This document shows positions 7,003-8,852 of a stretch of DNA of 31,064 bases, piece by piece. The notes under the pieces are model-generated. The model had not been told where the DNA came from. It worked only from the letters and a program-made list of their open reading frames with translations, and did no database searches. The stretch's first letter is position 1. The number at the start of each line of letters is the position of its first letter. Source of the stretch: a virus (taxonomy: Duplodnaviria; Heunggongvirae; Uroviricota; Caudoviricetes); IMG/VR virus record IMGVR_UViG_2737471828_000009, positions 1 to 31,064 of that record; one strand, given 5' to 3'. The position numbers and the translations under genes were made by a program.

Positions 7003-7566
7003 ATGAGGCTAACCGTGGGTAAGCATCACTGGAAAATAGAAAAACAGCCTGAGTGGTACGTGAAAGCTGTCAGAAAAACTATCGCGGCGTTGCCGGGTGG
7101 TTACGCTGAAGCGGCTGACTGGCTCGATGTAACAGAAAACGCTTTATTCAACCGCCTTCGTGCAGATGGCGATCAGATTTTCCCGCTGGGATGGGCAATG
7201 GTTTTACAGCGTGCTGGTGGCACTCACTTCATTGCTGATGCTGTGGCGCAGTCTGCAAATGGCGTCTTTGTGTCTCTTCCTGACGTCGAGGATGTGGACA
7301 ACGCCGATATCAACCAACGCCTGCTGGAAGTCATTGAACAGATCGGCAGTTATTCAAAACAGATTCGTTCAGCAATTGAAGACGGTGTAGTGGAACCGCA
7401 TGAGAAGACAGCAATTAACGATGAGCTGTACCTCTCAATTTCGAAGCTGCAGGAGCATGCAGCACTGGTCTACAAAATCTTTTGCGTTTCAGAAAGTAGT
7501 GACGCCCGCGAGTGTGCAGCTCCGGGCGCCGTGGCGTGTCGTGACTGTGGAGAAACTAACGCATGA
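7003..7566 (+). CDS. CII-like regulatory protein (CP76-type)
   Basis: 187-aa ORF immediately after cro, where lambdoids place cII; family assignment is from memory only. Confidence 0.5.
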
Positions 7567-7901
7567 ACAGTTTAACAACACACTACCGTCGCTCGCAACT
7601 GATTGCGCTTCCTGTACCGGGTGGAAAAGCGAAGGTGGAGTATTGCTATGCAGTAAATGTACCAGGTGACAGGGAAATTGTAACCCACAGCTTTGCAGAG
7701 TGGGCTGTGGGTGATTTCAACCGGCAGAAGGAGACAGTCCTTTGCGACAAGTTAACCGCTGGTTCAAAGATCACTACGGAGTGCCCGTCAGAGTCATTCG
7801 TTGGGAACCGGAAACACAACGGGTTATCTACCTCCGCGAAGGCTATGAGCATGAGTGCTTCAGCCCGCTCGAACAGTTTCGTCGTAAATTCAGGGAAATA
7901 G
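7563..7901 (+). CDS. Hypothetical protein; reading frame appears disrupted in its 3' half
   Basis: ATGA overlap with the preceding gene supports the start, but the C-terminal third ([18 protein letters not shown]) looks non-coding, while an alternative frame over about 7740..7921 gives a protein-like 57-60 residues ([44 protein letters not shown]...) preceded by AAGGAG. Confidence 0.35.
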
Positions 7902-7910
7902 AGGTCGGTC

Positions 7911-8852
7911 ATGAGCACTAAATTAACCGGCTATGTATGGGATGGTTGCGCTGCATCAGGCATGAAGTTATCCAGCGTGGCAATTATGGCCCGCCTGGCT
8001 GATTTCAGTAATGACGAAGGTGTGTGCTGGCCATCAATTGAAACCATTGCCCGCCAGATTGGCGCGGGGATGAGTACCGTCAGAACGGCTATCGCACGGC
8101 TGGAAGCAGAAGGCTGGTTAACGCGTAAGGCGCGTCGCCAGGGTAACCGCAATGCGTCGAATGTTTATCAGCTTAACGTTGCGAAGCTTCAGGCAGCGGC
8201 ATTTTCTCAACTGTCAGATTCTGACCCGTCAAAATCTGACGCATCAAAATCTGACCCGTCAAAATTTGATGCGTCGAAATCTGGCAAAAAAGCGGGTTTT
8301 CACCCGTCAGAATCTGGCGGGGATCCGTCAGTAAAATCAAAACATGATCCGTCAGATAAAAAACCTTCTCGTCCGGACGCTTCGCAACCGGACACGCAGA
8401 CGGCTGAACAGGATTTTTTAACTCGCCATCCTGATGCGGTTGTATTCAGCCCTAAAAAGCGCCAGTGGGGGACGCAGGATGATTTGACCTGCGCACAGTG
8501 GCTCTGGAAAAAAATCATCGCCCTGTACGAGCAGGCTGCCGAATGTGACGGCGAGGTGGTTCGTCCCAAAGAACCGAACTGGACAGCCTGGGCAAACGAA
8601 ATTCGCCTGATGTGTGTGCAGGATGGTCGTACTCACAAACAAATCTGCGAGATGTACAGCCGCGTCAGCCGCGATCCGTTCTGGTGCCGTAACGTGCTCA
8701 GCCCGTCGAAGCTGCGGGAAAAATGGGATGAGCTTTCCCTGCGCTTATCGCCGTCCGTCAGCACGTACACCGAAAAACGCGAAGACCCGTACTTCAAAGC
8801 CAGTTACGACAACGTGGACTACAGCCAGATCCCGGCAGGATTCAGGGGGTGA
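7911..8852 (+). CDS. Replication initiator (O-like, N-terminal HTH) containing origin iterons
   Basis: N-terminal HTH region (SIETIARQIGAGMSTVRTAIARLEAEGWL), low-complexity linker encoded by iteron repeats, conserved C-terminal domain; located where lambdoid phages place gene O. Confidence 0.75.
   Translation: MSTKLTGYVWDGCAASGMKLSSVAIMARLADFSNDEGVCWPSIETIARQIGAGMSTVRTAIARLEAEGWLTRKARRQGNRNASNVYQLNVAKLQAAAFSQLSDSDPSKSDASKSDPSKFDASKSGKKAGFHPSESGGDPSVKSKHDPSDKKPSRPDASQPDTQTAEQDFLTRHPDAVVFSPKKRQWGTQDDLTCAQWLWKKIIALYEQAAECDGEVVRPKEPNWTAWANEIRLMCVQDGRTHKQICEMYSRVSRDPFWCRNVLSPSKLREKWDELSLRLSPSVSTYTEKREDPYFKASYDNVDYSQIPAGFRG
8212..8365. repeat. Iteron array (putative ori) inside the initiator gene
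   Basis: About six direct repeats with 18-19-bp periodicity and core CCGTCA(A/G)AATCTG (for example GACCCGTCAAAATCTGAC twice), followed by an A-rich stretch. Confidence 0.6.

Follow-up and report, generated by a model that had tools for sequence, protein, structure and literature searches.

The region between the CII-like regulator gene ymfL and the replication initiator gene (rep) was analysed in a 31,064-nucleotide (nt) stretch of Caudoviricetes DNA (IMG/VR virus record IMGVR_UViG_2737471828_000009, positions 1 to 31,064), hereafter called the window, to which all coordinates refer. This region probably harbors two separate genes of a lambdoid (e14/SfII-type) early-right operon, ymfM and a small gene of family DUF4222, which overlap out of frame over 160 nt. 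Only the first half of the 112-codon ymfM open reading frame (ORF) appears to be constrained as protein; the remainder crosses DUF4222 in another frame and seems to be kept open by selection, with a putative role in translational coupling to rep. As kinds, ymfM, DUF4222, overlapping phage genes and translational coupling are known already. In the literature searched, no description was found of the conserved overlap, of selection for openness without sequence constraint, or of the resulting ambiguity about a division inhibitor. The elements concerned are the following.

7563..7901, + strand: ymfM ORF, 112 amino acids (aa), ATG start, stop TAG 7899-7901
7563..7742, + strand: N-terminal domain of ymfM (ORF-X), codons 1-60, the part of the 112-aa frame with protein-level selection
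7743..7901, + strand: ymfM tail, codons 61-112 plus stop TAG 7899-7901, equal to the +1 frame of DUF4222; open, aa sequence unconserved
7728..7733, + strand: Shine-Dalgarno (SD) sequence AAGGAG of DUF4222, 8 nt 5' of TTG 7742, as read from the sequence
7742..7921, + strand: DUF4222 gene, 59 aa, TTG start, stop TAA 7919-7921
7742..7901, + strand: out-of-frame overlap of ymfM and DUF4222, 160 nt

An original prediction, made from the letters of the window, had described a 112-aa frame with an ATGA start overlapping the upstream gene and, over roughly 7740..7921, an alternative frame encoding a protein-like peptide, with AAGGAG upstream and a stop overlapping the start of rep. Both were present, the first at 7563-7901 and the second, with the quoted peptide, from TTG 7742 to TAA 7919-7921. 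What it had not foreseen is that the 112-aa ORF is a named gene, that it truly encodes protein over its N-terminal 60 codons, and that selection keeps its reading frame open where it crosses the small gene. The 112-aa ORF shares 109 of 112 residues (97 %) with Escherichia coli K-12 b1148, annotated as "cell division inhibitor YmfM", and all three differences fall in the C-terminal tail. The order ymfK-ymfT-ymfL-ymfM is the same here as in the K-12 prophage e14, and orthology is thus indicated by both sequence and synteny; a replication gene follows downstream in both, intact in the window and represented by the chimeric ymfN in K-12. The 59-aa ORF matched Pfam PF13973 (DUF4222) above the gathering score (67.3 bits for a cut-off of 27, E 8.6e-19), with residues 2-53 aligned on profile positions 3-52 of 53, and it also fell in PHROG 1343. 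The PHROGs collection holds separate families for the two frames (1170 and 1343). No Pfam match was obtained for the ymfM ORF and no NCBIfam model was found for YmfM or for the 59-aa protein. The fold predicted for DUF4222 is a generic Tudor/SH3-like beta-barrel, while the AlphaFold2 model of whole YmfM was of insufficient confidence to search for related folds.

Current annotations are in conflict, as each lists one gene. E. coli genomes annotated with PGAP, including a K-12-like strain and UTI89, carry only the DUF4222 coding sequence WP_001250269.1 and leave 7567-7741 (~175 nt) blank, whereas only the 339-nt ymfM ORF is given in RefSeq MG1655 and in phage records, SfII and PhiR49_1 among them. 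None of the records examined annotated both genes together, and a full-text literature search retrieved no paper connecting ymfM with DUF4222.

The frame on which selection acts was deduced from polymorphism among 85 e14-type (E. coli-type) sequences, 52 of them distinct, and from divergence between genera. Within 7563-7741, 18 of 25 variants were synonymous and seven non-synonymous in the ymfM frame. Within the overlap (7742-7901), 14 of 15 variants were silent for DUF4222 yet non-synonymous for YmfM. Likewise, 80 viral contigs encoded two distinct DUF4222 proteins versus 28 distinct YmfM proteins, the differences lying nearly all in the tail; the scan of viral contigs yielded only ~98 % identical sequences, which served the polymorphism analysis and contributed no extra lineages. 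Between genera, ratios of non-synonymous to synonymous substitution rates (dN/dS, Nei-Gojobori method) were 0.24-0.39 for the N-terminal part of ymfM, 0.08-0.17 for DUF4222 (dS 0.7-1.2) and 1.7-1.9 for the ymfM tail in its own frame. AlphaFold2 gave the tail a predicted local distance difference test score (pLDDT) of 33-38 and no secondary structure. Since polymorphism, dN/dS and structure prediction agree, coding constraint, as read from these sequence comparisons, changes frame at ~7742, and the suspicion that the 112-aa frame resembles non-coding sequence over its C-terminal third is borne out. For dual coding, the overlap thus combines purifying selection in the DUF4222 frame with a ymfM tail that is free of aa constraint and yet avoids stops and ends at a conserved position.

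That DUF4222 alone is real and the entire 112-aa ymfM ORF spurious would agree with the unannotated stretch at 7567-7741 in PGAP genomes, with the lack of Pfam and NCBIfam matches and with the low-confidence AlphaFold2 model. It is nevertheless very unlikely, given the excess of synonymous variants and the low dN/dS over the first 60 codons, the ATGA junction with ymfL, which is kept in most loci examined, and homologues of the N-terminal part that stand alone elsewhere. Three such cases were encountered: a 78-aa ymfM homologue in Entomohabitans (L004), directly followed by rep without any DUF4222; a 73-aa homologue in a metagenomic contig (L006), followed by a KilA-N/ANT gene and then by DUF4222; and a 53-aa homologue in Yersinia phage YeP2, whose TGA overlaps the ATG of DUF4222 in a classical ATGA junction. 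In addition, the N-domains found 5' of DUF4222 belong to three sequence types of 56-60 aa that are related at profile level (hhalign probabilities of 96 %, 94.5 % and 74 %).

DUF4222 is equally self-contained. Across Enterobacteriaceae its proteins are stand-alone, measure 59-70 aa and begin with a methionine aligned with TTG 7742. At 36 genome loci the start codon was ATG in 31, TTG in three and GTG in two, and a canonical SD 4-mer occupied positions -18 to -5 in 22 of 24 distinct upstream contexts (background 10.6 %). In the window, the DUF4222 frame is open from 7715, after TGA 7712-7714, and TTG 7742 is the first start it offers. The T of this TGA is polymorphic: 10 of the 52 distinct sequences have G, A or C at 7712. 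Such substitutions are synonymous in ymfM and abolish the stop, which accounts for database entries labelled 'DUF4222' that are 69-73 aa long owing to N-terminal extensions (P0064, P0065).

As for the two-frame layout itself, ~1,900 complete E. coli genomes have it, and so do 79 of 80 viral contigs (the contig end cuts the remaining one); it is also present at 36 diverged loci that represent at least ten enterobacterial genera (Escherichia/Shigella, Atlantibacter, Citrobacter, Enterobacter, Kosakonia, Kluyvera, Raoultella, Phytobacter, Silvania and Buttiauxella). The original prediction had offered four readings of the frame switch, and it is the overlapping small gene below the ORF-length cut-off that stood, with its PF13973 match, its counterpart WP_001250269.1 in PGAP genomes, and a start and ribosome-binding site (RBS) conserved across Enterobacteriaceae. 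A single gene inactivated by frameshift, or a sequencing or assembly indel, would produce just such a switch within one ORF-sized interval; the recurrence of an identical layout in all these genomes, contigs and diverged loci makes either extremely improbable, all the more as DUF4222 forms a stand-alone family. The search among homologues for an intact single ORF returned in-frame fusions of both parts as singleton database entries only (P0024, P0072).

The remaining reading, a programmed -1 ribosomal frameshift by which ymfM ribosomes would slip into the DUF4222 frame to make a YmfM-N/DUF4222 fusion, has the right geometry, since the shift from the 112-aa ymfM frame to that of DUF4222 is -1, and the internal SD-like AAGGAG could stimulate slippage. 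Also in its favor are two metagenomic contigs, L007 (2150-2340) and L008, where the DUF4222 frame is intact and conserved with GCG at the start-codon site, ATG, GTG, TTG and SD are absent, and a ymfM frame of 107 aa reaches the usual stop uninterrupted; none of the explanations tested accounted for these contigs. This reading too has very little chance of being correct. The window and 31 of 38 loci lack any X XXY YYZ slippery heptamer, none is conserved among the 38 loci from -90 to +150 of the DUF4222 start, and folding of 7840-7960 revealed no frameshift-stimulating RNA structure. The downstream frame has conserved initiation signals of its own, a stop codon lies 0-3 nt before the DUF4222 ATG in L043 and L022, the zero frame stays open for 52 codons beyond any possible shift site, and the genes are separate in L004, L006 and YeP2. 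Altogether, indel, pseudogene and canonical programmed frameshift were rejected because of the stand-alone genes, the SD and start proper to DUF4222, the singleton status of fusions, the missing heptamer and the stops preceding the DUF4222 ATG.

The second part of the main finding, which was not expected, concerns the ymfM frame over DUF4222. In all 36 loci and in Pantoea phage AH07, an ORF beginning at the ymfL stop passes over DUF4222, in the +1 frame of the latter, and terminates at one and the same alignment column; stops of the ymfM frame inside DUF4222 were found in 0 of 36 sequences. When each DUF4222 protein was recoded with local codon usage, the +1 frame was open with a probability of 0.055 and 2.1 stops were expected per sequence. 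At sites where a valine, leucine or isoleucine codon ending in G or A would introduce a stop, usage was restricted to codons ending in T or C (at column 18, GTT 18 times and GTC 17 times), while the same residues took GTG, GTA, CTG or ATA wherever the next base renders these harmless. A tree-aware simulation with selection on DUF4222 only, calibrated to the observed divergence, led to a stop in 24 of 36 tips on average, and all tips remained open in 0 of 1500 runs; with divergence lowered to one quarter of the calibrated value, this happened in 3 of 1500. The +2 frame, used as a calibration of the simulation, displayed 3.5 stops for 3.9 simulated. Finally, six of seven DUF4222 genes without a ymfM-type overlap contained two to five stops in the +1 frame (YeP2, EKP1, phiNP, L006, and second copies in SfV and in an Stx phage).

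These figures bear on a neutral run-on, according to which the two genes are separate, the 52-codon tail is a functionless result of a lost stop, and openness is inherited rather than selected. The tail is indeed without aa constraint and predicted to be disordered, the single-sequence probability of 0.055 is unremarkable, and one unrelated DUF4222 has its +1 frame open by chance. We consider this explanation improbable, although less so than the preceding ones, since all 36 diverged sequences are open despite a dS of 0.7-1.2 and against the tree-aware null, unsafe synonymous codons are specifically avoided, and the stop column is kept through rare codons. The ymfM stop always arises from an isoleucine, leucine or valine codon of DUF4222 ending in TA (the rare ATA, TTA, CTA or GTA) followed by A or G (36 of 36 loci; null 0 of 1000). 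Taken together, these sequence statistics show a ymfM tail whose aa sequence is unconstrained, from which stops appear selectively excluded and whose end point appears fixed.

The fixed end point lies at the junction with rep, whose elements, together with the upstream gene, are as follows.

7003..7566, + strand: ymfL, CII-like regulator gene (Pfam Phage_CP76, E 1.4e-13; NCBIfam phage_reg_YmfL, E 2.7e-50; PHROG 101, CII-like)
7901..7904, + strand: GAGG, SD of the replication gene, its first base being the last base of the ymfM stop; 6 nt before ATG 7911
7911..8852, + strand: replication initiator, O-like, with HTH_36 N-domain (Pfam HTH_36; PHROG 391, replication initiation O-like, E 7.9e-136)

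In the window, the ymfL stop TGA (7564-7566) overlaps the ymfM ATG (7563) as ATGA, ymfM and rep share one reading frame, and the ymfM stop is situated 9 nt 5' of the rep ATG at 7911, abutting the rep SD. The DUF4222 stop TAA (7919-7921) overlaps codons 3-4 of rep. The junction TA(A/G)-purine-rich-ATG is conserved, and the gap between stop and ATG amounts to three in-frame codons in 33 of 36 loci, before four different downstream genes. A stop within a few nt of a downstream start and SD is the geometry of termination-reinitiation.

According to the arrangement favored here, ymfM would start at ATG 7563, coupled to the ymfL stop, and encode a conserved ~60-aa domain belonging to a family with three N-domain variants. 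DUF4222 would initiate independently at TTG 7742 behind its own AAGGAG and be made in parallel. The ymfM frame, having no stop at the DUF4222 start, would be read for 52 more codons in the DUF4222 +1 frame, the selected trait being the transit of ribosomes in the ymfM frame to the rep RBS rather than a function of the tail peptide. In this way, termination-reinitiation coupling may connect ymfL, ymfM and rep while bypassing DUF4222; at the least, early termination may be disallowed. Two further arrangements are consistent with coupling. All junctions of YeP2 are 4-nt overlaps, as expected for sequential coupling; and in SfV, ST64B, Stx2a_1447 and Hafnia phage yong2, the ymfM-type frame crosses DUF4222 and runs stop-free into a Rha/antirepressor ORF.

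Several points weigh against this arrangement. The DUF4222 frame of L007 and L008, devoid of ATG, GTG and TTG, is left unexplained by independent initiation, and the one non-overlapped DUF4222 with an open +1 frame, from a Providencia phage, illustrates that openness may arise by chance. RNA over 7840-7960 was less stable than shuffled sequences (z +1.73), with no masked rep RBS predicted; the RNA around the rep start being unstructured, it hides no RBS for which coupling would be needed. DUF4222 too terminates beside the rep ATG and could supply coupling itself. The TA of the stop column adjoins the rep SD and might owe its conservation to RBS context rather than to its part in a stop. The coupling role is proposed from stop-codon statistics and geometry, and translation of either frame in the window is likewise a prediction.

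At the four loci with a run-on frame (L045, SfV, 2352-3188; L046, ST64B; L047, Stx2a_1447, 2352-3503; L050, yong2, 1484-2167), the crossed DUF4222 copy is intact with a GTG start, and the frame continues for ~90 more conserved codons into a Rha/antirepressor/Ash ORF of 227-385 aa. Because the ymfM-type frame continues into them, these annotated regulators start with the ymfM N-domain followed by DUF4222 read off-frame; the Rha domain itself may truly begin at an internal methionine (MATIPT...). A second, divergent DUF4222-like small gene lies right 5' of rep with an ATGA junction in L045 (3181-3417, SfV orf38) and L047 (3500-3724), so that a DUF4222-type gene immediately 5' of rep appears to be a recurrent module. 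At the homologous junctions, as at 7908-7921 of the window, the ATG of the next gene sits in CATGAG, which encodes the conserved His-Glu of the DUF4222 C-terminus. The four unrelated downstream genes mostly begin with Met-Ser at this junction, the MNTLIQ... gene beginning with Met-Asn, which suggests that CATGAG is a recombination joint between lambdoid modules.

The closest known system is ymfM of K-12 e14, the same gene in the same neighborhood; it is treated as encoding a single 112-aa product without mention of DUF4222, whereas its last 52 codons correspond here to the non-selected frame. The small phage proteins of PF13973 and PHROG 1343 resemble the 59-aa protein by full-length match and by standing alone right upstream of rep, as in YeP2, EKP1, AH07 and SfV orf38. 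They usually start with ATG, whereas the gene described here starts with TTG and is nested under the 3' half of another ORF. Out-of-frame overlapping phage genes are known from lambda Rz/Rz1, phiX174 and the MS2 lysis gene, and in Rz/Rz1 both products are functional proteins. As in this lambdoid pair, a longer gene here houses, in a different frame, a second gene equipped with its own RBS. In contrast to Rz/Rz1, aa constraint is restricted to one frame while the other displays stop avoidance and a fixed end, and the overlap is partial rather than fully embedded. Termination-reinitiation coupling is familiar from ATGA and TGATG junctions of polycistronic operons. The ymfL/ymfM ATGA, the ymfM stop 9 nt before the rep ATG and the DUF4222 stop 8 nt after it are comparable, but here the upstream ORF crosses a whole other gene in a different frame, and the dependence of rep is putative. 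Programmed -1 frameshifting, as in lambda G/GT and dnaX, similarly involves frames related by -1 and an SD-like element upstream; the present locus differs by the absent heptamer, a downstream frame with its own start, and a zero frame that is not soon terminated. The overlap would thus be a clean natural case of a frame preserved for its openness and stop position, not for its encoded sequence.

The overlap has consequences for an experimentally studied gene. ymfM (b1148) of prophage e14 was reported as the cell division inhibitor YmfM/SfiC; the ymfM "open reading frame" was cloned in the NcoI site of pBAD24, and ymfM was deleted by lambda Red recombination (Ansari et al., bioRxiv 10.1101/2020.11.19.390815). 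pBAD-ymfM now serves as a tool for making filamentous cells, ymfM being the long-sought sfiC, and earlier library clones had spanned both genes. The ymfM ORF (7563-7901) includes the SD and TTG start of DUF4222 and the first 53 of its 59 codons, which cover the entire Pfam domain and all structure predicted with confidence; two thirds of the 5' neighborhood of DUF4222 lies inside the ymfM ORF as well. A ymfM deletion would therefore remove both genes, and pBAD-ymfM, as described and with insert ends assumed from the published description, would carry the DUF4222 RBS, start and 53 of 59 codons. UTI89, used in a second filamentation screen, has the same e14-type pair; both genes are present and there is no discrimination between their products.

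Because the clone carries DUF4222 and the deletion removes both genes, filamentation is not assignable to one product: the phenotype attributed to the 112-aa YmfM (SfiC; inhibition of the FtsZ ring) could stem from either the N-domain of YmfM or DUF4222, or from the two together. In the overlapped part of the K-12 gene, DUF4222 and not the YmfM tail is the selected frame, which puts the molecular identity of the inhibitor in question. A combined proposal, that the ymfM frame is open only as a 'ribosome bypass' delivering ribosomes of the CII-like gene and ymfM to the rep start, and that SfiC, the division inhibitor of e14 inducible by the SOS response, is wholly or partly the 59-aa Tudor-like DUF4222 protein, is advanced tentatively and is possible rather than probable. 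If SfiC were DUF4222, this would be the first function for a DUF family located upstream of rep in lambdoid phages of several enterobacterial genera.

Among other features, a 90-aa ORF on the - strand opposite DUF4222 (7646-7918) was open in 33 of 36 homologues (null ~24 of 36, maximum 34) and had no Pfam match; it is probably a shadow ORF of the conserved DUF4222 codons. An Rfam scan of 7300-8100 (E up to 1) matched nothing. Inside the replication initiator gene, five to six tandem 15-nt repeats with consensus TCAAAATCTGACNCG occupy 8199-8321 and are directly followed by two copies of GATCCGTCAG at 8322-8360. The repeats at 8199-8360 resemble iterons of a replication origin lying within the gene for its initiator, a layout known from lambda O.

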